In this document: piece by piece, positions 1-12,784 of the stretch
Position numbering within the stretch: the stretch's first letter is position 1
Layout: each line of letters begins with the position of its first letter
Position numbers and translations under genes: made by a program
From: a virus
Lineage: Duplodnaviria; Heunggongvirae; Uroviricota; Caudoviricetes
DNA length: 12,784 nucleotides
IMG/VR virus record: IMGVR_UViG_3300016467_000502
Location: 1-12,784 of that record
Reading direction: 5' to 3' (one strand)
The notes under the pieces: model-generated
What the model was told of the DNA's origin: nothing
What the model saw: the letters and a program-made list of their open reading frames with translations, nothing else
Databases searched by the model: none

Positions 1-1389
1 GCTATAACGTGTTCTGAGGTATTGCATATTGTTTGCGCTTTCTATGGTAACACCAGTCGCTCCAACAATGCGAACCTGACCCGTTCCTTTTTGCATGATG
101 GTCACTTGATGACCTGGAGGAAAATTGGTCAAAGACAAGGGAACAGTGACAATTACCGCACTGGCAGATTCTGTTAAGATGACAATACCCGCATCCGTTG
201 TGTTGGATGTTGTTGCAGTACCTCCAGCTGTTGCAGAACCCACAGGCGCATCTGCTTTGAGAGTCCAGGCAGTAGTCGTTGATCCTAAGTCTCTGAATCC
301 AGCTACCCCCGTTGAACTGTTGGCTCCATTTGATCCTGCAGGTCCTGTTGCTCCAGGGGCCCCATTGGCTCCAGGAAGACCAGGAGCACCGTCTGCACCT
401 TTTAGCAAAAGTCCTGTTGCAGGCCATCCAGAAGATGTCTTAGGACCTATTAATGTATAAGTCGTAGTGTTTAAGTAGTAGTCTCCAATAATACCAGTAG
501 TTGACAAAGGTGTGCTGGAACCACTGTAAATTTTTGAACCATCCTGGCCAGGTAATCCTTGCGCACCGGGTGCTCCGTTTTGTCCAGCAGGACCCGTAGC
601 ACCGGTAGCACCAGTGGCTCCAGGCGCTCCATTTTGTCCGACAGGGCCTACAAGGCTAATACCTGCTACAGGCCAACCAGATAACTGCTTAGGTCCAATC
701 AGTGTGTTGGTTGTAGTATTGATGTAGTAGTCCCCTACATTTCCTAAAGCTGCCAACGGATTGGTGCTTCCTGACAAGATCAGGTTTCCAGCTGGACCGG
801 CAGGTCCTGTTAAGCCGTTGCTTCCGGGAGGGCCTGAGATCTGCCCCAGGTTCACCCACCCGTTAATATCAGCTGAGGAGCTGGTAGGATCATATACATA
901 AATGGTTCCGTTCACCCCAGATGCAATGTCTGTCAACATTACGACAGTTAAAGGATCAGGTGCGGGAAAATCGGCAAGCAAAGTTGTATAAGTAGACGTG
1001 TACCCCTCTACTGTAACGGACTGACCGGGAACACCTGGAGGTCCTTGTGCACCTACAGCGCTGATCTCAATGATTTGTCCTGGCGTATCTACAACTACAG
1101 GATCTGTTCCGCCGTTAATGGTAACACTACCATCCAATGCCGGCTGCAGTGTAAAATTGTTGGCCCCACCAATGTTTCCATTGTTAGACAGTCCTTGCAG
1201 CACTTCGGTCATGTTATCCCCTGTGGCTGCTACGCCAGGAATGTCTGGCCCATCATAGCGCACGCAAGATGTGTTCATGACTTCAGGGCAAGGCTCGCCA
1301 TTATTACAAATGGGAGGCGCGGGAGGCGCCACAGGAGGAGTAGTAGGCTCCTGTGGACATCCGCAATTTGAAAGTTCTTCAGGGTACAT
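1..1389 (-). CDS. Collagen-repeat tail/head fibre protein, 3'-truncated (at least 463 aa, runs off the left edge)
   Basis: Not in the ORF track. Manual translation from ATG at 1389 is open to position 1 (MYPEELSNCGCPQEP...TIMQKGTGQVRIVGATGVTIESANNMQYLRTRYS). It has four Gly-X-Y blocks (12 triplets at 538-648, 9 at 319-399), two copies of a 38-aa spacer, and a beta-rich C-terminal region. Confidence 0.9.
   Translation of the reverse strand, partial: MYPEELSNCGCPQEPTTPPVAPPAPPICNNGEPCPEVMNTSCVRYDGPDIPGVAATGDNMTEVLQGLSNNGNIGGANNFTLQPALDGSVTINGGTDPVVVDTPGQIIEISAVGAQGPPGVPGQSVTVEGYTSTYTTLLADFPAPDPLTVVMLTDIASGVNGTIYVYDPTSSSADINGWVNLGQISGPPGSNGLTGPAGPAGNLILSGSTNPLAALGNVGDYYINTTTNTLIGPKQLSGWPVAGISLVGPVGQNGAPGATGATGATGPAGQNGAPGAQGLPGQDGSKIYSGSSTPLSTTGIIGDYYLNTTTYTLIGPKTSSGWPATGLLLKGADGAPGLPGANGAPGATGPAGSNGANSSTGVAGFRDLGSTTTAWTLKADAPVGSATAGGTATTSNTTDAGIVILTESASAVIVTVPLSLTNFPPGHQVTIMQKGTGQVRIVGATGVTIESANNMQYLRTRYS
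421..783 (-). repeat. Two copies of a 38-aa spacer domain (670-783 and 421-534) between collagen blocks
   Basis: LILSGSTNPLAALGNVGDYYINTTTNTLIGPKQLSGWP aligns without gaps to KIYSGSSTPLSTTGIIGDYYLNTTTYTLIGPKTSSGWP. Confidence 0.9.
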
Positions 1390-1409
1390 ATCTTAGATAA
1401 TATTTTTCA

Positions 1410-2990
1410 TTAGGGTTGAGCACATAAGTTAAACGGAACGCCTGCGCAAAGTTGTACAGATTGACCAGTAATCGACTGGATACATCCCAATGTTCTTGTT
1501 TGTGTAGCGCAGGTATTAGTACTAGCACAGTACAAAGTGGTTGATTCTGTGTAATCAAGCTCTACCGTAGACTGACCTCCAGCAATAGTCAATACCTCAG
1601 TATAGTATGACTGTACACCGCACGCATCAGACAACTCAAAGTAAAGTGTCACTACAATGTTTGCACCCGTGTTGTTTATTGGAGTTCCTGTTACGGAGTT
1701 CTGAAGGGTAACAGTGATGGTCTTATTTGTTTCAGGGTAACTATTTGTAATACCACCCGCTGTACAATCAACGTTTGTAGCAGGACGAATAATCTCTTCT
1801 ATATTGATACACATTGGGATTACACTAGACTTAATTACTGCAATGGTTGTAGCAGCAGAAGATCCGCAGTTATAGACGGCTGTCACCTTTACTGCGTAAT
1901 TCTTATTCTCTATATATCCACCGTTGGAAATAGTTATAGGAAGCGTCGCAGGGTGCGCATAGGTCTGTGTATACAATGGTACGCCACTAGGCTGGTTAGC
2001 GCTGGCATTAAATACTTGCACTAGATACTCAACAGGCGCTTCTCCTGTACCATAAGCAGGAGTGGTCCAGCTCACCTGAAAGTTGTTGGATGTCACACCG
2101 CTTACTGCAAGGCTTGTCACAGGTACAGGTACACAGGAAATAACCTCCTGGCAACAGTCTATGATCTTCGCTCTCATATCGCATATGGTGATCCACATGT
2201 TGGTCAGTGTCTGGGCAAGTGTAGTAGGATTTGCAGTCCATCCTGGTAAATCTGCCATCAGTGTGCCAGGTGTCATTAGAGAGTCTGCTGTTTCAATAGT
2301 AGCACAACCTGCGTAATCTGTCACAGCTGTGATCTGGGCAATAGAGCCCAACACCGCACTCAGGTCGCAAAACGTCTCCTCAAAGTTGGCAAATGCCATT
2401 TGTATAGGGAGCACTAGACCTGGTGTAGGTCCACTTGCACATTGTGTAGTAACATTGATAAGCGGTGATCCTGTTGCGGGCGTCTGGTTTTCCAGAATAG
2501 TTACCCGCAAATCCAAGGCGTCAAGTTGAGCCTGGTGATCATCTGTAATGCTGTACAAGTCACATACTGCAGTAGCAATCAGGTCAATATAATCATCCTG
2601 TGTCACCTGTGTAATAGTATTACCATCTCCATCTACATACTGTAAACAGGCAGGTAAAGTATAAAGTGTCTCAGGACTAGGTACTATAGGGTCATCTGTA
2701 AGTGCTTCACAAAGCTTGTTGACAATAAGCTGTATCAAAGCTTCTTGTGTTGTTGGAGAAGTATCTCCAATATTCAACAAACAGGTTACGTCTATGCCGG
2801 CTACATCAAACAAGTTGTCGTTAATCTCGCACACTTTAAGAGCGAGCTCATATACGACTTTTGTAATGGTATCTCCGCTACAAAGTGTCAAGCAAGGAAT
2901 ATCAGGTCCCTGCCAAATGACACAGTTGCTGGACAACGGAGTACAGTTAAAATTTGGATCTGGCTGTGTATTTGAATTTACAGGGTTCAT
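1410..2990 (-). CDS. Cys-rich structural protein (fibre/hub-like) with a short coiled coil and a fibronectin type III-like domain
   Basis: 526-aa ORF with 25 Cys. Heptad segment DDHQAQLDALDLRVTILEN (~2488-2544). FN3-like pattern PVTSLAVSGVTSNNFQVSWTTP...VEYLVQV...NYAVKVTAV (~1846-2132). ATGA overlap with the upstream gene. Confidence 0.75.
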   Translation of the reverse strand: MNPVNSNTQPDPNFNCTPLSSNCVIWQGPDIPCLTLCSGDTITKVVYELALKVCEINDNLFDVAGIDVTCLLNIGDTSPTTQEALIQLIVNKLCEALTDDPIVPSPETLYTLPACLQYVDGDGNTITQVTQDDYIDLIATAVCDLYSITDDHQAQLDALDLRVTILENQTPATGSPLINVTTQCASGPTPGLVLPIQMAFANFEETFCDLSAVLGSIAQITAVTDYAGCATIETADSLMTPGTLMADLPGWTANPTTLAQTLTNMWITICDMRAKIIDCCQEVISCVPVPVTSLAVSGVTSNNFQVSWTTPAYGTGEAPVEYLVQVFNASANQPSGVPLYTQTYAHPATLPITISNGGYIENKNYAVKVTAVYNCGSSAATTIAVIKSSVIPMCINIEEIIRPATNVDCTAGGITNSYPETNKTITVTLQNSVTGTPINNTGANIVVTLYFELSDACGVQSYYTEVLTIAGGQSTVELDYTESTTLYCASTNTCATQTRTLGCIQSITGQSVQLCAGVPFNLCAQP

Positions 2991-3217
2991 AGACTATTTA
3001 TTCTTTCTGTTACACTAGCATGCGAGCAGCTTGTTGTTTCCACCGTACACCCGCATGCTTTACGTTCTTCACCTCGCACATAAAGATTTCTCAGATCATC
3101 AGCAAGGTCAGCATCTACTTTTGCACGACATACTTTAAGCCCATAACGTTTGCGCTGCATGTCTTGAAACAATGCGTCTGCAAAAAGTTGGTTGATATGT
3201 GTTAGCGGATCAGTCAC
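2987..3217 (-). CDS. Small hypothetical virion-module protein (76 aa, 4 Cys)
   Basis: GTG start 2 nt after the upstream TAA. Its TGA stop overlaps the next ATG (ATGA). It fills the gap in a tightly packed operon. Confidence 0.8.
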   Translation of the reverse strand: MTDPLTHINQLFADALFQDMQRKRYGLKVCRAKVDADLADDLRNLYVRGEERKACGCTVETTSCSHASVTERINSL

Positions 3218-3219
3218 GG

Positions 3220-3387
3220 TTACACTAGGTCTTCAGGTTTTATATTGTTGTTAGGTAAAAAGTTTGACAGTTTCAGCTGTGCTTCATAAGCTTTTACACA
3301 GTTTGAACACACAGAACGCCCGTCTGATGCAGTACGAACCTGGCATGTACAGCCCAGGTTGGTGTTACAATTATTACACTTTGCCAT
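3220..3387 (-). CDS. Small Cys-rich protein (55 aa; CxxC, CxC, CxxC), possibly metal-binding or disulfide-bonded
   Basis: Not in the ORF track. Manual translation gives MAKCNNCNTNLGCTCQVRTASDGRSVCSNCVKAYEAQLKLSNFLPNNNIKPEDLV*. It has an A/C-rich leader (AACCAACCAACAAGTAT-ATG) and fills the gap between its neighbours. Confidence 0.85.
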   Translation of the reverse strand: MAKCNNCNTNLGCTCQVRTASDGRSVCSNCVKAYEAQLKLSNFLPNNNIKPEDLV

Positions 3388-3402
3388 ATACTTGTTGGTT
3401 GG

Positions 3403-3966
3403 TTAGCAATTACAGGTAGAGCAACATCCGCTCTGGTACTTCTTTAGCAACTTCTGAGCATAAGCAAGCATGTTCACCGCGTCTTTTGGCGAATGACAGT
3501 ATTCAGCTTTAGCTTTAGCTGCTTCTAAAAACATCTTAATGTAACGCAGATCATGCATTTTATCATGCTGCTCAGGAGTTGGTTCACATTCAGCAAGCTG
3601 AACTTTACATACCTCCTTGTAGTAGGTGTTTAAGGTGCTTGTGATTCTCAAGTGATAATACTCAACGTATACCAAATCATTTGGAGAAACACTGTATTTG
3701 ATTTTGTAAAGCCCATCAGGAAGATCAACAATGCTGGGATGATTGACAGGAATTAATCCTAAGTCAGACGCACTAAGATTCAGTGTAAAATTAGGAGTTA
3801 ATCCCTCTGAAATATATACAGGCACACTGTACCCAGGGACGTATATGTCCAGGCGCTGACAATCTACGTTCAACGTGTCAACGTAAACAGAAGCGTCTAC
3901 AATGCGCAGGACGTTTTCACATGCTGTGTCAGGTACGTCAAGTGCCAGGTGGTGTTTCAGTGCCAT
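3403..3966 (-). CDS. Hypothetical structural (tail-region) protein, 187 aa, Cys-rich C-terminus
   Basis: First ORF after the terminator. Beta-rich N-terminal half, helical C-terminal half, ending GCCSTCNC. Function inferred from position only. Confidence 0.7.
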   Translation of the reverse strand: MALKHHLALDVPDTACENVLRIVDASVYVDTLNVDCQRLDIYVPGYSVPVYISEGLTPNFTLNLSASDLGLIPVNHPSIVDLPDGLYKIKYSVSPNDLVYVEYYHLRITSTLNTYYKEVCKVQLAECEPTPEQHDKMHDLRYIKMFLEAAKAKAEYCHSPKDAVNMLAYAQKLLKKYQSGCCSTCNC

Positions 3967-4020
3967 AGGGTCAGGATAGACAGATTAATCTCTACAATAA
4001 GAATTTACAAAAAAAGCGCT

Positions 4021-4062
4021 ACAAAAACAAAAAAGGAGACCAAGTTTCCTCGATCTCCTTTT
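4021..4062 (-). terminator. Rho-independent terminator after the 487-aa gene
   Basis: Minus strand AAAAGGAGATCGAG-GAAA-CTTGGTCTCCTTTT: a 14-bp stem with two G-U pairs and a GAAA loop, running into TTTTTTGTTTTT about 20 nt after the stop. Confidence 0.85.
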
Positions 4063-4084
4063 CATAGGGTAGGGTTAAGTCAGT

Positions 4085-5548
4085 TTACAGAGATGTGTTC
4101 AAGGTCACTTCACTTCCACCAGCGCTCAGCCAGTTAGTCATGAATGTTTCAAAGCTGTTGGCTCCCGTTGAACGACTATTTACTACAATCTTCACCAAGT
4201 ACTGGTCTGCATCCAATGTTCCTGATGGGTTACTCTTGCGAGGAACGCTATGCAAGATGTAGTACGCACCGTAGCGAGAACCACGAGAAATACCTGCTGA
4301 GAACACAGTATCATCCAACACCTCACGCAAACGTGGGTCGTTACTCCATGGCTCTTGTTTGTAACGATTGCCAAGGATTATTTCGCGGATGATAGTCTCA
4401 CCAAAACCGTTTCCTTGAGCAGTGGCTTGAGTTTCAAACACACCACCTACAGCAGCATTAGTTACCAATACATTCTCAAATGATTGAGTAACGTCCAGCT
4501 GATATCCAGTAGCACCAAAACACTTAGTGGCACAAGGCTGATCTTTATCGTCTACAACAGAAGCGTAGATTTGAATAGGCTGTACCTCATAATGATCAGT
4601 TGGTTGGAATGAACAGTTACCAAAAGTGGTATCTGCATATGCGCCAGTCAATTCCAAGAATGCGTCGCTTGTCTCTGGTGACGCATCAGGAGTGTACTCG
4701 TTAAATTCAGTTGTTACGTTTGTGTAAAACTTAACAGAAGTTGCAGCAGCAACAGTTACGGTCACGCTTGCTCCGGCAGCATCTACCAAAGGAACAGTGG
4801 ATCCAGATACGTATGAAGCGCCTACAAAAGTATTTACAGGAATTCCTGCACCTACTACTTTCTGACCAGCAGCTACACCTGTTCCAGACGCAACAGTCAA
4901 GTTAGTAGCGGCAGAGGCTGTACCAGTTGTAGCAGCATCTAAGTTCCATACTTTAGGAGATACAAACTGAGACAAAATTGGGCTTTTAGCAACAGCTTCC
5001 TTCCACTGAAGTAATACTACCAAAGGATCAACATTAGTAGCACCATCGCAACAACCAGTGTATGCATCTACAGTCAAATAAGCATTGTGAGTTAAGAAAC
5101 GCAATGCTGGAGAACCTTTTACGTCTACACGTAAACGATAGGTAGTATCGCAAGTAAGAGCTTCGCAGTTAGCGGCAGGCTTTACTACAACGATGTTTTG
5201 AACAGGAGCCTCAGCAGGAATGTAGTAGAAAGCACTAACATACTTAGGGTTGATACCCTTAGATTTGATAGTCTCTTTGTACCCTCCGTGGAAAGGTCCA
5301 ATCTTATCATTTGTGTGAAAGCTTCCTTGAGCTAAGTAGATCATAGGAACTTCTGCGTATGTTGGTGTAGCAGCCAAATCCAACACCTTGTTGTTTTTAG
5401 CGTTAATTACACCAATCTGACCAGCCAACAGTGAAGTGGTAGCCAAAACACCTGGAGAGGCAGGGTTACCTGTGTCGTCTCCATCTCTAAATGGAGTGCC
5501 ATTCGTAGCTATCATCGGTAGCTGGAAGGCGTGTGGAAAATAAGCCAT
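4085..5548 (-). CDS. Virion structural protein, crAss-like auxiliary capsid/decoration protein-like, with an Ala/Gly/Thr/Val-rich insertion
   Basis: 487-aa ORF. Its position after MCP and a ring-like gene matches the auxiliary capsid protein slot in crAss-like modules. Beta-rich, and followed by a terminator as expected for a high-copy product. The family call is inference. Confidence 0.6.
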   Translation of the reverse strand: MAYFPHAFQLPMIATNGTPFRDGDDTGNPASPGVLATTSLLAGQIGVINAKNNKVLDLAATPTYAEVPMIYLAQGSFHTNDKIGPFHGGYKETIKSKGINPKYVSAFYYIPAEAPVQNIVVVKPAANCEALTCDTTYRLRVDVKGSPALRFLTHNAYLTVDAYTGCCDGATNVDPLVVLLQWKEAVAKSPILSQFVSPKVWNLDAATTGTASAATNLTVASGTGVAAGQKVVGAGIPVNTFVGASYVSGSTVPLVDAAGASVTVTVAAATSVKFYTNVTTEFNEYTPDASPETSDAFLELTGAYADTTFGNCSFQPTDHYEVQPIQIYASVVDDKDQPCATKCFGATGYQLDVTQSFENVLVTNAAVGGVFETQATAQGNGFGETIIREIILGNRYKQEPWSNDPRLREVLDDTVFSAGISRGSRYGAYYILHSVPRKSNPSGTLDADQYLVKIVVNSRSTGANSFETFMTNWLSAGGSEVTLNTSL

Positions 5549-5581
5549 AGGGTTATAAGAATTATGGGGTTAATAAAAAAA

Positions 5582-6043
5582 TCACTGTAAAAAGAGAAGC
5601 TTGTACTTGATGGAGTTGATTGTGCTTTTGATAGTATCAAGGTCGTTTACAATCTCACTGTAGGGCATCATACCCTGCAGATCATTGACCATCGTTGTCA
5701 GCTCTCTTAAATAAGATAAACCATCTTCAACATTGTTCAAAACTCTTGGAGCATTTTCTTCTCCAAACATTAAAATCTTTTCGCGCGCTCCCTGGTATCC
5801 TTCAGCCAGTGCATCAGCATGACCTGGCAACGCGTCGTATAGTTCATTCAAAGCGCTGTGAGCAGCAAACGAACCTGGTCCTGTAACTTTCAAGTGTAGT
5901 TTATGAAAGCTTGTTCTGGCACTCATAAGCTCAGACACACATCCTGCAACACTTTCACATAACGAGTCCTGCATAGGTTGACCGTCAGGTTTATCTGTAG
6001 GTATTACAAGCTTGCGCTTCAGTATGTTATTTCCAAGTTCCAT
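5582..6043 (-). CDS. Dps/ferritin-like protein (phage DUF5856-like)
   Basis: HKLHLKVTGPGSFAAHSALNELYDALPGHADALAEGYQG follows the Dps signature HWNVxGxxFxxxHxxxxExY...DxxAE, with His, His, Glu, Asp and Glu retained. The size fits a four-helix bundle. TAATG coupling to the upstream gene. Confidence 0.8.
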   Translation of the reverse strand: MELGNNILKRKLVIPTDKPDGQPMQDSLCESVAGCVSELMSARTSFHKLHLKVTGPGSFAAHSALNELYDALPGHADALAEGYQGAREKILMFGEENAPRVLNNVEDGLSYLRELTTMVNDLQGMMPYSEIVNDLDTIKSTINSIKYKLLFLQ

Positions 6044-6744
6044 TAGTTATTGCTTGTTGAGTTTGTTTTGTTTCTTTGGTACTGTGTAATAGACTCTATG
6101 TCCCCTGCCAGTATACTTGCCGCATCGTCTACAATCAGCTCTGCAACATCATCTTTGAACTCGCAGATTATATCTGCCGGTACAGTTTGACCAGTATTCA
6201 AGTTTACACATCCTGCAAACTGAACTTCTACAGGCTTGCGATAGTAGGTAAGTTTAGGATCAACTACCTGAAACTTATTGTTGTGATAGATTCTCATTTT
6301 GTTTCCTTGCAGCGTGCAGAAAGTTTCTCCCCACTCTGCGCTAGGATTTCTCAAAGAATCTACCAGAAGCTGGCTAACGTCAGCAACCGGAGCTAGGTAT
6401 ACACCTAATGCGCGATCTGGACAGCAGTCTGTATGACTTTTGGCACCGATGCGTTTGAAATACAGGTACTCCGTTGGGAGCACCTGCGTTTCAAAGTATA
6501 TATCTTGGTTGGTTCCTGTTAAAGGAGCCTCTACGAGCAAGCGCTGCAAATCATCGATCAATACATCAGAAGACTCATCGCCCTCCTTGGTCTGGTTGAT
6601 TCCATGTACCTGGCGTCTGACAAACTCCAGCTGGGCTTTATTGAACGCTTCCGCGACCTGCCAGCACTCTATGTTGTCATAGTCCATGGAGGCCAGTTTG
6701 TTCAGGCGCTCCTTGATCTTGATCTGTAACAGTGCGTTGTTCAT
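6043..6744 (-). CDS. Putative head-tail adaptor/ring protein (crAss-like ring protein family)
   Basis: 233 aa. The helical N-terminus with AEAFNKAQLEFVRR resembles the crAss-like ring/tail-tubular N-terminus. Beta-rich middle with YYRKP. Located downstream of MCP, with TAATG overlaps at both ends. Confidence 0.6.
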   Translation of the reverse strand: MNNALLQIKIKERLNKLASMDYDNIECWQVAEAFNKAQLEFVRRQVHGINQTKEGDESSDVLIDDLQRLLVEAPLTGTNQDIYFETQVLPTEYLYFKRIGAKSHTDCCPDRALGVYLAPVADVSQLLVDSLRNPSAEWGETFCTLQGNKMRIYHNNKFQVVDPKLTYYRKPVEVQFAGCVNLNTGQTVPADIICEFKDDVAELIVDDAASILAGDIESITQYQRNKTNSTSNN

Positions 6745-7757
6745 TAGTTATTCCACATTTTCTCTACGTTCTTGGTGAGGTCTGTAAGGATCTCTTCGTT
6801 CAAAGGATTCTTCAGGTACTCTACCACATCTGACGGGTTTCTGCCAATCATTGCTGCGCTCTTCATGTGGTAGATAAAACCATCACCACGAGTAGCAATG
6901 AACTTGTACAGACTTGCGTCCTTGACAATCGCACGCAACTTCAGGGTTTCCATATCCAGACCGTTTACGTCCAGGAAGCGCTGAGCTGTTTTCTTCTTGT
7001 CCTTCTCAACTGTCTCACCGTTGATGTACTTATCCATGTTATCATAGAGCACATCAAGCGGGGTAGTCTTGCGGTACTGTGTAGAGTTAGGATCAACAAT
7101 CTTACACACGTAGAACAGCTTGTTGGCGTTCTTGTCAAATAACTTCTGCAATTCAGCCAAAGCCTTGTTGCGTAATTTCTTCACTTCAGTTCTGATAGAA
7201 GCAGTCTCCTCAAACTTATCCAGGTAGAATTTTACACCGGGGGTTCTGCGAGCTTGTTCTAAACTTGCAGCAATCAATGAGAACCCTCCTGCTTCAATGG
7301 CCTTCATCTTAATGAGGTCATATGCATCCTTCACTGGATCTAAAAACACAGGTTCATTTCCCATGCGTATCACAATCTTCTCCCAGAACTTTTCATTATC
7401 TGGTCTAAGCAATTTCACCTTGTTCCAGAATTCAGGATCTTTAGGATCAATCACGTTGGCTGCTAAATCTTTTTCCAGCTGTGCCACGGTGATACGAATC
7501 TGCTTGATCTGTGCTTCGCGCTCATCTTCTTCCAAATCTTTGAGCTCAGGAGCAAACTCGTTTAATCCTGTGACGTAACGGTTGATACCGTTTACTGACA
7601 GACAGATCAAAGGTTCTTCATGGAAACAGTTTTCAAACAGTGCCATGTTGTAACGCTGCAGACCCATGTTGTCTGCTGAATTGTCTACAAAGGGTCGGAT
7701 GCTCACTTGCGCGCCCGTCTTCAATGAGTTGTGTTTCTCAATCAAAGTAACTTCCAT
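6744..7757 (-). CDS. Conserved hypothetical protein following MCP (crAss-like capsid-module gene); probable start ATG 7757 (337 aa)
   Basis: The track starts at 7796, but that extension is translated A-rich leader (KKKTNQLKNL). ATG 7757 follows a 27-nt G-free leader like those of the other genes. The protein is helical and charged. Confidence 0.7.
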   Translation of the reverse strand: MEVTLIEKHNSLKTGAQVSIRPFVDNSADNMGLQRYNMALFENCFHEEPLICLSVNGINRYVTGLNEFAPELKDLEEDEREAQIKQIRITVAQLEKDLAANVIDPKDPEFWNKVKLLRPDNEKFWEKIVIRMGNEPVFLDPVKDAYDLIKMKAIEAGGFSLIAASLEQARRTPGVKFYLDKFEETASIRTEVKKLRNKALAELQKLFDKNANKLFYVCKIVDPNSTQYRKTTPLDVLYDNMDKYINGETVEKDKKKTAQRFLDVNGLDMETLKLRAIVKDASLYKFIATRGDGFIYHMKSAAMIGRNPSDVVEYLKNPLNEEILTDLTKNVEKMWNN

Positions 7758-7796
7758 AAGGTTTTTAAGTTGGTTTGTTTTTTTCTTCTGCAACAT

Positions 7797-7960
7797 TGGT
7801 CAGCTTTCGCTTCAAGCTCCTGAACCACGTCACGGTTGTTGCTTCTCAGGAGTACCTGGCTTTCGCCAGGCGGGGCCGTACATTACTCATGCACGGAGGG
7901 AGGTGGTCATAAGTTAGCCTGCAAATACCAGGAGGATTTTAATGCCCTCCTGGTTTGCAG
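7797..7960 (-). ncRNA. Candidate structured RNA / multi-hairpin mRNA element between MCP and the next gene
   Basis: Five consecutive stem-loops on the minus strand: 7919-7960 (15 bp, 2-nt bulge), 7876-7896 (8 bp, GAGUA loop), 7855-7870 (6 bp, GAAA loop), 7817-7852 (7-bp closing stem) and 7802-7811 (3 bp, GAAA loop). No family recognised. Confidence 0.55.
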
Positions 7961-7977
7961 AATTACCTTCAGGGTTC

Positions 7978-9636
7978 TTAGAATGAACCTCCAGTGATGG
8001 GGTTGCGCATCACAATCTTTAGAACTTTGGTTGGGTCCTTAACCCAGATAGAAGGCATCATCTGAGTCATGAATACACGGTAACCGTTAAAGTTACCTAC
8101 AGAGGCAAACCCTTGAGAGCGACCCATGTAGTCCATAGTACCGTTTTGATAGAACCACTTCAACTCACTGTCCCACTTCAACTTCAACAAGAAGATGTTG
8201 TCGTTAGTGTTGTCAGTGATGTCGAACACGATGTAGTTGTAAGAAGACAATGGGAAACCGTCGATGATTGGGTTTTCCACGTCGCTAGTGTGTACGTTGT
8301 CAAATGCAGGGTTCAACACGAATTTCACGTTAGCCAAGAATGGGATGGTGTAGCTTGTGAACGCAAAACCAAAGTTCAGGTCCATAGCATTGTTACCAGA
8401 GATGGCACCAATACCGTTCTTAGACATATCTGTGAACAACGAGTTGTTCTGAGTAGTGCTTGCTCCAGCGATGTTGAAAGCCTCCTGCTTAATAGCCTCG
8501 TTAACCATACGCATACCGGCCATACCAGTTTGAACGATGATTTGACGAGAAGGATCTGGTCCTTTGAAGTCAACCTTACCGTTGTAGAAGTTGAAGATCT
8601 CAGAGCGGAACAATTCCAAAGAGAAACCGTTCTTGTTGTAGATACGCTTGAACGAGTTGTCCAATTGATCCCACAAACCTACAGACAAACGAATATCGTC
8701 TGGTCCGTCTTGCTTGATTCTTCCACCCTTACCCCACATCAGGTAAGTTTCAATGTCGTTGGCAATCTTGCTCAAGTGAGCAGCTTCCATCTTTGTAACG
8801 AATGTTCTGGTCAAAGAACCATTGTCATACGCTTTCTTGATGTAGTCTTTACCCAACTTAGATACCATAGCATCAATGTTGGTCAAAGAAGGATCGTTTG
8901 CAATGTTAGCATCAAATGAGCGCCAGATCTCAGTTACAGGAACTGTACCGTCAGCGTTCATACCGCCTTTCATCATCATTTCTGCACGGCTAGATACAGA
9001 GTAGTGTACGTTAGCTTCAGCTCCACCTACGAAGTTGTAGTACTCACGGAAGCCAGCGTTCAATTCTCCGATGTCAGAGAACTTCTCACCATACTCTCCA
9101 CGAGCAGAACCTTTGCGGAAGAACTTAGTACCAGGCTTCAAATACTTTCCAGTATCTAAACCAGTGTCATTGCTGTTGTTCACTAACTGCACAGTATAGA
9201 TGAAACCATCTCCTGCAGGAAGGATGTCATCAGCTGTAACGAACAATTCCAATCCTTTGAACTTGTCGTAAGTGATGATGTCGTTGTGACCAAATGCGCG
9301 CTTGCTCAATTTGATCTTGAAATTGGTACCGTCTTGTCCTACGGTGCCTGACTCGATGTTCTCGACTACATAAGGAAGATCCTGTACGATAGGAGTCTGC
9401 CACTTGTACTCGCCACGAGCGTTGTCTACTAAAATGGTGTTTTTACCACCGAATGACGCCATCTGATAAAGAGGCATCTCTACCTTTTGAGACATGGCCC
9501 ATAAATCAACTGGACCTAAATCCATAGGTTCAGTGTTTTTGAGCATGTTCACCAAATGGTAGCTGTCCACGTGAGAGCTAACTTTGTAGTTAGTGTCTCT
9601 CAGGAACAAACCATTGTTTAAAACTGGTGTTGACAT
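7978..9636 (-). CDS. Major capsid protein (large HK97-fold, crAss-like type)
   Basis: 552 aa, directly downstream of portal and scaffold. Strong bias toward AAC/TAC/TTC/ATC codons suggests high expression. The C-terminus (GYRVFMTQMMPSIWVKDPTKVLKI) resembles crAss-like MCP ends. No Cys. Confidence 0.85.
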   Translation of the reverse strand: MSTPVLNNGLFLRDTNYKVSSHVDSYHLVNMLKNTEPMDLGPVDLWAMSQKVEMPLYQMASFGGKNTILVDNARGEYKWQTPIVQDLPYVVENIESGTVGQDGTNFKIKLSKRAFGHNDIITYDKFKGLELFVTADDILPAGDGFIYTVQLVNNSNDTGLDTGKYLKPGTKFFRKGSARGEYGEKFSDIGELNAGFREYYNFVGGAEANVHYSVSSRAEMMMKGGMNADGTVPVTEIWRSFDANIANDPSLTNIDAMVSKLGKDYIKKAYDNGSLTRTFVTKMEAAHLSKIANDIETYLMWGKGGRIKQDGPDDIRLSVGLWDQLDNSFKRIYNKNGFSLELFRSEIFNFYNGKVDFKGPDPSRQIIVQTGMAGMRMVNEAIKQEAFNIAGASTTQNNSLFTDMSKNGIGAISGNNAMDLNFGFAFTSYTIPFLANVKFVLNPAFDNVHTSDVENPIIDGFPLSSYNYIVFDITDNTNDNIFLLKLKWDSELKWFYQNGTMDYMGRSQGFASVGNFNGYRVFMTQMMPSIWVKDPTKVLKIVMRNPITGGSF

Positions 9637-9677
9637 AGTTTGGGTTTGGGATTAAGTGTTAGTATAGGTTGTAAATC

Positions 9678-10934
9678 TTATCTCTTAAAAATGTTTGCAG
9701 GCTGTTGTCTTGTGATTCTGCGTTGTGCCGGTTTAGTTGGCTCATCATCGTCATCCTTTACAGAAGAGCTTAACTTGCGTGCCTCCTCTGTTTTCAGCTT
9801 GCGTGCAGTATCCTGTACAACTTCGTTCTTTGCCTGGCGACGAACATTTTCTTTGTAGTCGTCTGGATCAGAAAGCAGCCAAAGGGTTTCTGCAATCAGG
9901 TCGTAGCGTGGTTCCTTTCCAAACTGGTAGTCCTCTAAGAGTCTTCCCAGTAAATTCGTAGGCCGTCCTGTGATAGAGTTATACTTTACAGTAGTCAACT
10001 CGTCCCACAAAAACTTCTGACGCTTTGCATCTATTTTTACTCCATTCAGTTCTCCTGGCTTGAGCGTATGATAGATGTTGTTCATGAACTGCTCTTTCTG
10101 TTGCTGCTGTTGCATACGGAACTGCTCTTGCTGTGCAAGCTTGGCCTGCACAATTTCTTCTTGCTTCTGGTCTAACTTGGGTTTAAACTGCTGTGCTTTT
10201 TTGCCCAGGGTTCCCATTTCAGTCCATTCCTGAATTTGATCTTCAATCAAATCCTGGTCACCATTTCCAAAGTTTGTAGCCTGTAGGTACTGGCGTACAA
10301 TTAATTCTTGGTGATCACCGTTGCTTACGTCCAGGCTGCGAACCTCTTCTACAGCAGCAAGTGCTCTGAAAAGACCTTTCATATCCTGGCCACCGCGTGC
10401 CACATATTCAGCTGCATACTTGAGTTCATCAGGTAATGCTTCAAAGAACTCTTTTGGAGTCTGCTCACGGATCGCTTTCTCGCGCTCCTCAATATTGGCT
10501 TGGATTAACTCCTTCCAATCTTTCATTGAGTAGTCCTCCATCGGCTTGTCCTCATCAAAGGGGAATATCACTCCCTCTTCCATAAGTTTGGTGAACGTTT
10601 CCACCATACCGCTTTTATCAATTTTCTTGCGTCCTGGTTTACTGTTAGCTGCATCATCATCTGCACCTTCCAGCTCCTCATCAAGAGCAGCAAGTGTCTT
10701 TTGTACGTCAATAGGCTTCTTCTTACCCTCTGCATCATCATCTCCATCATCAGCATTGCTGTCCTCAAGGAAACTTAAATCTGCAGGTTTAGCCTTGCTT
10801 GTGAACACCGAAGGTTTATCATCTTGATCCTCGTCAGCAGTCACAATGCTATCAGCACCGGGCATCGGCAAAAAATCGTCAATGCTGTCAATAGTTACAC
10901 TATCCGTGCTGGTGTTATCTCCTGGTTTGCTCAT
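9678..10934 (-). CDS. Putative scaffolding/capsid assembly protein
   Basis: 418 aa between portal and MCP. Acidic, disordered N-terminus, Gln-rich coiled coil (QQEQFRMQQQQQKEQ), and a basic C-terminal tail (KPAQRRITRQQPANIFKR) typical of scaffold coat-binding ends. Confidence 0.7.
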   Translation of the reverse strand: MSKPGDNTSTDSVTIDSIDDFLPMPGADSIVTADEDQDDKPSVFTSKAKPADLSFLEDSNADDGDDDAEGKKKPIDVQKTLAALDEELEGADDDAANSKPGRKKIDKSGMVETFTKLMEEGVIFPFDEDKPMEDYSMKDWKELIQANIEEREKAIREQTPKEFFEALPDELKYAAEYVARGGQDMKGLFRALAAVEEVRSLDVSNGDHQELIVRQYLQATNFGNGDQDLIEDQIQEWTEMGTLGKKAQQFKPKLDQKQEEIVQAKLAQQEQFRMQQQQQKEQFMNNIYHTLKPGELNGVKIDAKRQKFLWDELTTVKYNSITGRPTNLLGRLLEDYQFGKEPRYDLIAETLWLLSDPDDYKENVRRQAKNEVVQDTARKLKTEEARKLSSSVKDDDDEPTKPAQRRITRQQPANIFKR

Positions 10935-11043
10935 AATTGGTTTTTGTTGGTTAGATCTTCATATATAATCTACAAGAATAAACCTGTAGAATTTACATCT
11001 TGGAGAGGTAAACACTACATTTTACGCACTATATCGCTAAGGC
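10935..11043 (-). promoter_or_regulatory. AT-rich intergenic region, candidate internal late promoter
   Basis: 109-nt gap. It shares TGTAAATTCT and TTGTAGA (minus strand) with the 3967-4020 gap, and has an inverted repeat at 10969-10990. Confidence 0.35.
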
Positions 11044-12783
11044 TTATTCCTTGTCGTACTTGTTCTTGTTAGTTTGAGCTACTTGGAGTTGCTTGTCAGC
11101 AATTCGTTCACGACTGCGAAGCTCTTCGCGCTGAAGGGTAAGTTTCTGCTGCTCAGTCATTTGCTTGTTTAAATCACGCTCACGTGCCATAGCCTGGTCA
11201 CGATCCTGAGCGTTCTTCTTATCCAAGTATTCAAGTGTTTTGATGTAGTCAGTTTGGCCATCCTTGTCAGCATCCATCATTGCAGTATACCCTGCAGAGC
11301 GAATCTCAGCCACGCGGATATCCTTTTCACGATCAAGGGCACGCTGCTCAGCTTGTGCTTTAAGCAATGCGTCTTGACGTTCTGATTCAGCTTGCTGCTT
11401 CATCTTTTCAGTCTCCTGCATTGATTGCATTTCTTGTTGCTTGGCCTGTGCTACTTTTTCTTCGATGCTCTTCATGGTATGCGTAATCTCTGCCAGAGAG
11501 TCCGCTTTGAGGATATTACCCAAATCATAGATTGATGCACCAGCGGTGTTATTATTCATGGCAAGACCACGAATCTGTTCCATAATCTGGCGCTGATTAA
11601 CCTTGGTAGAAGTAAATACGTTCAACTCGCGACTCAGAAGTTCTGTACCATTAATTTGGAAGTTGACCTTCTCATCCATGGAGGTGATATACTGTAATCT
11701 TAGCGAAGGTCTTGTAGAATGATAGTACTGAGCAAGATCTGTACGCATCTGGTGAACACGAGGCATCAGATATTCTGAATGCTGTATAAAGTACATTTCT
11801 GTCTGAGAATAACTGGCGTTCATGGCTTGTTGCACACCTGTCGCTGTTTCCTGTGCAATAACCTGTCCCATACGTTGAGGGTTGATACCGATTGTTTCAA
11901 AGGCTTGGCTTTTAAAATAATTAGCCAACTGTATCCTAGACATCAGACGATTAGTCTGTTCAAGATTGAGCGTTTGATAATGTTGGAAATTGAGTGCGTT
12001 CTCAGTGTTTGTGATAGACGTATCCAGAGGTAACATCTGGAAGTTCTTCATCGCCACATATGTTTTGGCAAACTGATCATGTCCCCAGTCTTCCCCCATT
12101 GAATGCTTGGGAAGTGCGTTCTGGTCAATCATGATTACTGTACCAAGTTCATCTACAAGAATATCTGCAATCTGGTTGTTAACCAAGTTGTATCCAATCT
12201 GATAAGGTTTCATTTTGTCTACCAGGGATGCGCTCTTGGTGTTACGGTCTGAAAACACAGATCCTTCGACAGGCAGCTTACATCCGTAGATGCTGAAGTC
12301 TCCTTTAAATTGGAATCTTACTGGTTTAAGATTTAAGTACAAAGGTTGAAATCCGTTAGCGTCAACGTTTCCGTAGAAGCTAGGTCTATTAGGTCCAATC
12401 TTGATACCACCCCATACTTCATTGATCCAGATCCAGTCAACGTGCTCACCGTAAATCAACGTCTCACGAGATTTCTTTTTCATTACAGAAGTGTCATAAA
12501 TTGCTTTCTCTGTAATCTTGTAGTTCTCGTCAACAATCATGTCAACAATGATACCGTCATCACCTATTCTGCTCATATGTCCTACCATTCGCTGACTTTT
12601 CCAGTAAGCTGTGGTCACGCGAAGCAGATTCATATTTGACAAATCTGAAAGATCTTCAGATTCGTTAAGAATTCTAAAAAGAACGTCATCGCCTGTGCTG
12701 ACAAAAGTATCTCTAGCACTTAAGAATTGACGCATTCCCAATGATGGACCTTGTGTGTTCCATTCATGAGAGCGGGTAGCATC
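11044..12783 (-). CDS. Portal protein, 5'-truncated (crAss-like, long C-terminal coiled-coil barrel)
   Basis: The frame stays open past the track's TTG start to the window edge (DATRSHEWNTQGPSLGMRQF...). Portal-like motifs include WINEVWGGIKIG, SLVDKMKPYQIGYN and GINPQRMGQV. It has a long Gln/Glu/Lys coiled-coil C-terminus and lies upstream of scaffold and MCP. Confidence 0.85.
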   Translation of the reverse strand, partial: DATRSHEWNTQGPSLGMRQFLSARDTFVSTGDDVLFRILNESEDLSDLSNMNLLRVTTAYWKSQRMVGHMSRIGDDGIIVDMIVDENYKITEKAIYDTSVMKKKSRETLIYGEHVDWIWINEVWGGIKIGPNRPSFYGNVDANGFQPLYLNLKPVRFQFKGDFSIYGCKLPVEGSVFSDRNTKSASLVDKMKPYQIGYNLVNNQIADILVDELGTVIMIDQNALPKHSMGEDWGHDQFAKTYVAMKNFQMLPLDTSITNTENALNFQHYQTLNLEQTNRLMSRIQLANYFKSQAFETIGINPQRMGQVIAQETATGVQQAMNASYSQTEMYFIQHSEYLMPRVHQMRTDLAQYYHSTRPSLRLQYITSMDEKVNFQINGTELLSRELNVFTSTKVNQRQIMEQIRGLAMNNNTAGASIYDLGNILKADSLAEITHTMKSIEEKVAQAKQQEMQSMQETEKMKQQAESERQDALLKAQAEQRALDREKDIRVAEIRSAGYTAMMDADKDGQTDYIKTLEYLDKKNAQDRDQAMARERDLNKQMTEQQKLTLQREELRSRERIADKQLQVAQTNKNKYDKE

Positions 12784-12784
12784 A

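Follow-up and report, generated by a model that had tools for sequence, protein, structure and literature searches.

A candidate HDV-like ribozyme in the spacer behind the major capsid gene of an environmental crAss-like phage

The DNA analysed here, which we call the window, is a stretch of 12,784 nucleotides (IMG/VR record IMGVR_UViG_3300016467_000502, positions 1 to 12,784) and belongs to a virus record of 125,760 bp that is complete and has terminal repeats. The spacer between its major capsid gene and the next gene encodes an RNA with the double-pseudoknot fold of HDV-like ribozymes, whose helices covary among relatives, whose core nucleotides are invariant, and which occurs in a single copy at a fixed place, abutted by a hairpin. 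We consider it likely that this spacer is made up of a leaky terminator-like hairpin (H1), a C-rich tract, two further hairpins (H2 and H3) and then a 63-nt HDV-like ribozyme that cuts the late transcript. To judge from its sequence, the ribozyme probably separates the capsid message from that of the following genes, with no help from a host enzyme. The HDV-like fold class is known; what is new is an HDV-like variant in a new and interpretable context, the capsid spacer. In the literature that we searched no paper links HDV-like ribozymes to capsid genes or to crAss-like phages.

The minus strand carries all genes of the window, in the layout of a crassvirus-type head module, and the ribozyme candidate, flanked by two protein genes, has the same orientation as both. 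The genes and the parts of the spacer, read 5' to 3' on the minus strand, are the following.

11044 to 12741, minus strand: portal gene (phrog_6547).
Between the portal and the major capsid gene, minus strand: gene for a 418-aa protein.
7978 to 9636, minus strand: major capsid protein gene, 552 aa, stop codon TAA at 7980-7978 (Pfam PF23898 Crass_capsid, 104 bits; phrog_11589, major head protein).
7919 to 7960, minus strand: H1, a hairpin of 17 bp located 18 nt downstream of the stop codon (minimum-free-energy fold).
7895 to 7907, minus strand: conserved single-stranded C-rich tract ACCACCUCCCUCC, between H1 and H2.
7876 to 7896, minus strand: H2, hairpin CCGUGCAU-GAGUA-AUGUACGG (minimum-free-energy fold).
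7854 to 7871, minus strand: H3, hairpin CCUGGC-GAAA-GCCAGG, with its core at 7870-7855 and a possible added G.U pair, ending 1-2 nt before the predicted cut.
7852 to 7853, minus strand: predicted scissile bond between A7853 (-1) and C7852 (+1), placed by the position of the P1 5' end in HDV-like ribozymes and by the tRNA ends of same-class members.
7790 to 7852, minus strand: minimal HDV-like ribozyme candidate, 63 nt (covariation, core nucleotides and covariance model R1).
7758 to 7789, minus strand: unstructured A/C-rich leader of the 337-aa gene, which includes AAACCAAC and has no Shine-Dalgarno sequence.
6744 to 7757, minus strand: gene after the capsid gene, 337 aa, with further virion genes beyond it.

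The identification of the upstream gene as the major capsid gene, already made in a preliminary description of this DNA, is borne out by the family matches given above. The 337-aa protein encoded downstream has no credible Pfam or PHROG family and belongs to no recognisable RNA-binding family. The first ATG of its open reading frame (6744-7796) is at 7794-7796 and falls within the ribozyme, at the junction of J4/2 and P2. In a tblastn search, about 70 relatives begin at residue 14 of the listed reading frame, 13 codons later. The real start is thus the ATG at 7757 and not that at 7796, which suggests that gene callers may overextend this gene and gives a true spacer of 220 nt (7758-7977). The scaffold-like and capsid genes also have ACCAA-rich leaders like that of the 337-aa gene. 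Directly before late-gene ATGs, at 7758-7789, 9637-9660 and 10935-10960 on the minus strand, are A/C-rich leaders that contain ACCAA(C) repeats and lack a Shine-Dalgarno sequence; the AAACCAA motif as such occurs 3 times in the window, against an expected 2.8, and shows no enrichment.

In the preliminary description the spacer was presented as one unrecognised RNA with five hairpins and GAAA loops. All five of the named stems are present on the minus strand, each of them in the minimum-free-energy fold. The minus-strand fold of 7797-7977 has an energy of -70 kcal/mol, against a mean of -47.9 for shuffled sequences (z = -5.93; 0 of 200 shuffles equal it), and the plus-strand fold is far less exceptional (z = -2.42), in agreement with the proposed strand specificity. 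The stretch is also GC-richer than its flanks, as had been observed (0.53 versus 0.43-0.46), and it was rightly set apart from simple terminators, as no stem has the U-tract of the terminator rule and there are 0 terminator-like sites in 7600-8100. The list of stems was, however, incomplete, as it lacked a 3-bp helix (ACC 7836-7834 with GGU 7826-7824) and a pseudoknot (GCAACA 7842-7837 with UGUUGC 7795-7790), and the structure runs further 3' than the limit of 7797 that had been set, to 7790. Rather than one RNA of five hairpins, the spacer is a composite of a terminator-like hairpin, a C-rich tract, two hairpins and the ribozyme. 'Unrecognised' is accurate in that no Rfam model matches, but two of the stems already named (P1 and P4) combine with the two that were missed (P2 and P3) into the known HDV-like double-pseudoknot architecture. 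The GAAA loops turn out not to characterise the element, since the AGC-GAAA-GCU hairpin is missing in 31 of 45 relatives and the loop of H3 varies.

The hallmarks of HDV-like ribozymes are a nested double pseudoknot, a catalytic C as the first base of J4/2, in a C-N-R-A context directly before the P2 3' strand, and a guanine of L3, G25, that binds the active-site metal. Canonical members also have a reverse wobble of G25 with U20, the first base of L3, a G1.U37 first pair of P1 at the cleavage site and a P1.1 of two pairs, formed by the second and third bases of L3 with the two bases that follow the P1 3' strand. Their scission depends on Mg2+, leaves 2',3'-cyclic phosphate and 5'-OH ends, and is lost when the catalytic C is changed to U. 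The candidate of the window can be divided accordingly into these parts.

7852-7846, minus strand: P1 5' strand, CUCCUGA.
7845-7843, minus strand: J1/2, GAA.
7842-7837, minus strand: P2 5' strand, GCAACA.
7836-7834, minus strand: P3 5' strand, ACC.
7833-7827, minus strand: L3, GUGACGU, in which G7831 pairs with C7816, U7832 is opposite U7815 (U.U) and G7828 is the G25 equivalent.
7826-7824, minus strand: P3 3' strand, GGU.
7823-7817, minus strand: P1 3' strand, UCAGGAG.
7816-7815, minus strand: P1.1 3' strand, CU.
7811-7802, minus strand: P4, AGC-GAAA-GCU, flanked by UGA and GA.
7799-7796, minus strand: J4/2, CCAA, with the candidate catalytic C7799.
7795-7790, minus strand: P2 3' strand, UGUUGC.

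P1 thus has 7 bp, the P2 pseudoknot 6 bp and P3 3 bp, and P4 is short. A capsid-protein search of IMG/VR gave at least 80 loci at 74-93% identity; the spacers of the capsid relatives listed range from 82 to about 1400 nt. A near-invariant block, CUCCUGAGAAGCAAC-ACC-UUGACGU-GGU-UCAGGAG-CUU, is present in 31 of the listed relatives and in 36 further contigs found by a 21-nt pattern search, and every copy sits between a capsid homologue and a homologue of the next gene, one per contig. From more than 60 IMG/VR contigs we assembled an alignment (A1) of 45 distinct sequences, in which a segment beyond the 3' end of the outer stem pairs with the 5-6 nt that directly precede ACC. The nested double pseudoknot, with the P3 3' strand adjoining the P1 3' strand, can be parsed in all 45, and the segments of the class follow in the order P1 (7), J1/2 (1-3), P2 (5-6), P3 (3), L3 (7), P3', P1', two bases, a linker or P4, C-Y-A-A and P2'. 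The P4 hairpin is an optional insertion found in 14 of the 45.

The covariation in relatives that the preliminary description had called for was found in these 45 distinct sequences. For P1 and P3 together, 97.8% of cells are paired (at most 56% with slid partners), 5 of 10 pairs have changed on both sides (4 of 7 in P1, 1 of 3 in P3) and 0 of 500 shuffles reach the covariation score. In the P2 pseudoknot, for which the 31 sequences without the P4 insertion were used, all 6 pairs show compensatory changes, and sliding lowers the share of paired cells from 99.4% to 47% at most. There are 6 haplotypes of P1 and at least 7 of P2, all complementary. P1.1 changes from G-C to U-A in loci L016 and L018, which is again compensatory, next to an invariant U.U. 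J4/2 reads C-Y-R-R in 45 of 45 sequences (CTAA 17, CTAG 14, CCAA 10 and CTGA 1, plus three CCAA assigned by eye), so that the presumed catalytic C is never replaced. The ACGU of L3 is conserved, its G (G7828, the G25 equivalent) being an invariant column, while neighbouring linker bases vary. Besides P1.1, whose single G-C pair has the orientation opposite to the canonical C-G, two positions depart from the canonical core. The first base of L3, equivalent to U20, is never A or C in the 45 sequences: 36 of them have U and 9 have G, including G7833 of the window. The first pair of P1 is C-G in all 45, in place of the G1.U37 wobble of HDV-like ribozymes.

The place of the block is fixed as well. 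Some 65-105 nt separate it from the downstream ATG, a distance that also holds in spacers of 440-614 nt; the module as a whole sits about 80 nt before the next gene and the 3' end of P2 about 25-55 nt before the ATG. In the relatives with spacers of 440-614 nt the module stays with the downstream gene, and inserted ORFs amounting to 400 nt can part it from H1. In locus L020, for example, two small ORFs of 74 and 41 aa (4715-4939 and 4959-5084) lie between the capsid hairpin and the module of tract, H2, H3 and ribozyme.

A covariance model (R1), built from 21 capsid-associated sequences with the window's own sequence excluded, has a sole match in the 125.8-kb genome, at 7794-7854 (58.3 bits, E 4e-14), and the pattern search and a generic HDV-like descriptor find the same single copy there. 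The generic descriptor also gives 1-2 matches in shuffled genomes, so the fold by itself is not significant without the covariation, and it is the covariation that carries the argument. Searches against Rfam, including its HDV, CPEB3 and drz families, gave no match even at E <= 10 with either 601 or 101 bases, as the check proposed in the preliminary description had left to be seen, and nothing at the gathering score for 18 related loci; a blastn search of the spacer against GenBank phages found no match either. Among cultured phages, Leptolyngbya phage Lbo-JY46 (PP438436.1, 125.3 kb) has the closest capsid protein, 26.7% identical over 99% of its length. The gene order of this phage is the same and its spacer is 64 nt long, with no significant match to R1, so that no laboratory system was found.

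The remainder of the spacer is conserved in other ways. H1 is the positional counterpart of an intrinsic terminator, whose U-tract is degenerate (UAUUUG) and absorbed into the stem, and it fails the terminator rule. Its counterpart bears a T-run in the short-spacer and some other relatives (L016, L030, L041-L045 and L063-L072); the short-spacer relatives have the terminator hairpin alone at this slot, and some of the ribozyme-bearing relatives keep the T-run. The C-rich tract is kept as CUCCACCUCCUC in relatives of the window's type (A-type), and there are C-rich equivalents in the B-type relatives, which carry the motif B described below. It resembles an anti-Shine-Dalgarno sequence and also the 3' arm of H1. 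Among the partners considered for it (the P1 3' strand, L3/P3 and the purine-rich leader) none is consistent across relatives, and no covarying partner was found. At the H2 position most relatives have a hairpin of different sequence. A stable hairpin ending 0-3 nt before P1, the place of H3, is found in all 45 distinct relatives, with stem sequences that differ widely. Scans for sigma-70 promoters, the Bacteroidota -7 motif and terminators found nothing in the spacer. A riboswitch was considered and rejected, there being no expression platform and the start region being at least 30 nt away and unpaired. In locus L033 the 143-nt spacer after the capsid gene (about 4618-4760) contains a sequence like a tRNA T-arm, GGGTTCGAATCC, in which ARAGORN calls no tRNA.

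The closest known relatives of this RNA are the theta ribozymes, tabulated as P1, J, P2, ACC, T, CC, ACGT, GGT, P1', GG, linker, CTAA and P2' (Kienbeck et al. 2024, PMC10879173 supplement). Divided in the same way, the window reads CTCCTGA, GAA, GCAACA, ACC, G, TG, ACGT, GGT, TCAGGAG, CT, TGA-AGCGAAAGCT-GA, CCAA and TGTTGC, with TGAAGCGAAAGCTGA as the linker that holds P4. The double pseudoknot and the segment lengths are the same, P3 (ACC/GGU) is identical, and both have the ACGU tail of L3 and a J4/2 of C-Y-A-A. In both, P4 is missing or a mini-hairpin with UGA/GA flanks, the published mini-P4 theta form being TAAG-GCGGAAACGC-TGA followed by CCGA and also given as GA, TAAGGCGGAAACGCTGA and CCGA (PMC10879173). 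Minimal HDV-like forms go back to Riccitelli et al. 2014, as cited in PMC10879173. Both lie in non-coding DNA of tailed phages, in sense orientation to the neighbouring genes. They differ in the first P1 pair (C-G here, G.U in theta), in P1.1 (UG/CU here, that is one flipped G-C and a U.U, and CC/GG in theta), in the first base of L3, which here is G or U, and in their setting, which is the spacer between capsid and next gene in environmental crAss-like phages here and tRNAs of gut phages for theta. Because of the non-canonical P1 pair, P1.1 and L3 base, the published theta descriptor would miss the ribozyme of the window.

These deviations of the core place the RNA outside the published theta descriptor, and one classical defining feature is absent. 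They have precedents in fast ribozymes (PMC13635239) and therefore do not argue strongly against activity. In the crystal structure of a ribozyme from an Ackermannviridae phage, which cleaves at 4.2 per min, P1.1 consists of U:A above U:U (Luo et al. 2026, PMC13635239). Comparing by description, P1.1 is here likewise one Watson-Crick pair and a U:U, and in L016 and L018 it is exactly U-A with U.U. The HDV-like ribozyme of C. briggsae is very fast and is described with U-1 and C1 (PMC13635239); C at +1 is thus common to the C. briggsae ribozyme as studied and to ours, again by description. The Ackermannviridae and C. briggsae ribozymes both cleave fast, with the J4/2 C as general acid, and differ from our candidate in having full P4 helices and other genomic contexts. 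It is conceivable that G7833 makes a contact equivalent to that of U20, because an imino and carbonyl edge is common to G and U. The genomic HDV and CPEB3 ribozymes (RF00094 and RF00622) have the same topology, the J4/2 catalytic C and the L3 G, while the RNA described here is without G1.U37 and a P1.1 of two G-C pairs, has a minimal P4 and is set in a bacteriophage mRNA.

The first description of phage HDV-like ribozymes dates from 2024, and they have been explained only where they trim tRNAs; cleavage at the tRNA 3' end has been demonstrated experimentally for theta ribozymes, and hundreds of 'isolated' phage copies away from tRNAs were left without an assigned role (PMC10879173). A tRNA and tmRNA scan of the window found none, so the predicted cut does not lie within +/-5 nt of a tRNA 3' end as that of a theta ribozyme does. 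We also searched IMG/VR with a looser pattern, P3-L3-P3' followed by CT, which gave many matches, many of them by chance, and to which a structural filter and R1 were applied. At least about 21 copies of this L3/P1.1 core, combined with P1 and P2 sequences that are unrelated, are found in other phage contigs (R1), and these repeat a UUAAA-CUAA linker that the pattern did not include. In locus L153 (5229-5293) the first base of P1 is the last base of a tRNA-Met, and in L192 (1711-1770) and L198 (3708-3766) it is the last base of a tRNA-Arg. Since members of the same class begin at tRNA 3' ends, they support the view that this core class cuts at the P1 5' end and are, by analogy, the best available indirect support for cleavage there. 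A few of the same-core relatives at tRNA ends do begin with G. The nucleotide at -1 is never G in 67 sequences (45 + 22). In the wider class a hairpin abuts the predicted cut in 8 of 22 copies, compared with 31 of 440 control places, and in the tRNA-linked copies the tRNA acceptor stem occupies the hairpin position before the predicted cut. The three ribozymes that abut tRNAs lie within tRNA arrays. Some contigs have several copies, three in L162 and two each in L194 and L228.

From this we propose the following course of events. Transcription from an upstream late promoter would cross the capsid gene and in part stop at H1. In the late polycistronic transcript that reads through, the ribozyme would fold and cut between A7853 and C7852, with C7799 as general acid. 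The capsid mRNA would then end in H3, H2 and H1 with a 2',3'-cyclic phosphate and would presumably be long-lived, because such an end should resist 3' exonucleases. The downstream mRNA would open with a 5'-OH, and its first element would be the compact fold of the ribozyme; an open A/C-rich leader, of the kind that other late genes have, would come next. In this way the phage could set the amount and lifetime of the capsid message apart from those of the messages for minor proteins, with no need of host RNases. Where small ORFs are inserted the module keeps to the downstream gene, which suggests that the downstream 5' end may matter as much as the upstream cap. The element is dispensable, given that some relatives have a bare terminator hairpin or another structured motif at the slot. 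The preliminary description had guessed at a processing or stability element; the direction was right, as was that of the self-cleavage assay it suggested, in that the fold is the one known from self-cleaving HDV-like ribozymes and the RNA is real and conserved, with cleavage itself being predicted. No support was found for its alternative of a free ncRNA in assembly.

We weighed three other explanations against a self-cleaving ribozyme. In the gene 32 mRNA of phage T4 an H-type pseudoknot is an autogenous translational operator, bound by the ssDNA-binding protein that the gene encodes, and the RNA described here might likewise be an HDV-like fold that has lost cleavage, or has never had it, and serves the next gene as a 5'-leader pseudoknot, either as a translational operator that binds a protein or as 5' stabiliser. 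We regard this as rather unlikely. In both systems a pseudoknot lies tens of nt upstream of the start and is followed by an unstructured A-rich leader, a likeness in working only, as ours is a double pseudoknot with a ribozyme core and the protein downstream has no known nucleic-acid-binding family. The latter point, the want of a recognisable RNA-binding family, speaks against an operator, while the distance to the downstream ATG, which stays fixed even with two small ORFs inserted, is what a leader element would be expected to show. The absence of the canonical G.U wobble and of a CC/GG P1.1, together with the G of the window at the U20 position, also fits a fold that does not cleave, but these variant features occur in proven fast ribozymes (PMC13635239). 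Moreover, the candidate catalytic C and the G25 equivalent are invariant where nearby linker bases vary, the operator model has no role for a hairpin 0-3 nt before P1, and the position of same-core members against tRNA 3' ends is sensible only with cleavage.

It is also conceivable, at a much lower probability, that the ribozyme serves to make the 3' end of a trans-acting small RNA (the tract with H2 and H3, about 65 nt, or H1-H3), acting for example through the anti-Shine-Dalgarno-like CCACCUCC, in analogy to the release of tRNAs by theta ribozymes. A conserved single-stranded tract followed by two hairpins and a precise ribozyme-made end would suit such an RNA, as would the release of tRNAs by same-class ribozymes elsewhere and the fact that the phage's own late genes are without Shine-Dalgarno sequences. 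There is, however, no promoter or processing site to set its 5' end, neither a target nor a covarying partner was found, the region contains nothing tRNA-like and no Rfam RNA, and the B-type relatives have the C-rich tract without the ribozyme. The least probable explanation, to which we give hardly any credence, takes the spacer as a multi-hairpin transcription attenuator and mRNA 3' stabiliser only, with the pseudoknot incidental. H1 does match a true terminator in relatives, at a site where expression should step down, but the U-tract is missing, the core loop and junction nucleotides are invariant and as much as 400 nt of inserted ORFs may lie between H1 and the module; the covariation of P2, in 6 of 6 pairs, already contradicts this reading.

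More distant relatives, with a capsid identity of about 74-75%, have another conserved structured RNA at the same slot, which we call motif B (alignment A4: L046:4683-4782, L050:4698-4797 and 15 other loci). Its P1 has 7 bp (CCUGUUG/CAACAGG), and adjoining the P1 3' strand is a 4-5-bp hairpin, RGAG-CUYGCAA-CUCU, whose CUYGCAA loop pairs with J1/2 in a covarying pseudoknot of 3-5 bp (GCA/UGC, GCG/CGC, GUA/UAC). Compensatory changes are seen in 8 of the 12 nested pairs, and there is no Rfam match. An HDV-like fold was rejected for motif B, since a J4/2 cytosine is missing and its L3 is taken up by pairing with J1/2.

The G.U wobble and the P1.1 pairs are held to be important for HDV catalysis, and the flipped core of the capsid-spacer RNA provides a natural experiment on both. 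The unit of hairpin and ribozyme is a natural counterpart of the synthetic ribozyme insulators used in operon design. A conserved, covarying member at a defined place in a structural operon, together with its abutting hairpin, offers a concrete function for the phage copies that are not associated with tRNAs. We speculate, with considerable doubt, that a cassette of hairpin plus ribozyme, in which the first P1 pair is C1-G37, P1.1 is a flipped G-C/U.U and position 20 is G or U, is a host-independent punctuation of late operons in environmental crAss-like phages, and that motif B, the unrelated three-helix pseudoknot that fills the slot in sister lineages, could be a further self-cleaving class, and a new one. 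If the proposed cleavage is true, mRNA ends made by a ribozyme would set the ratio of capsid to minor proteins in these phages without host RNases.
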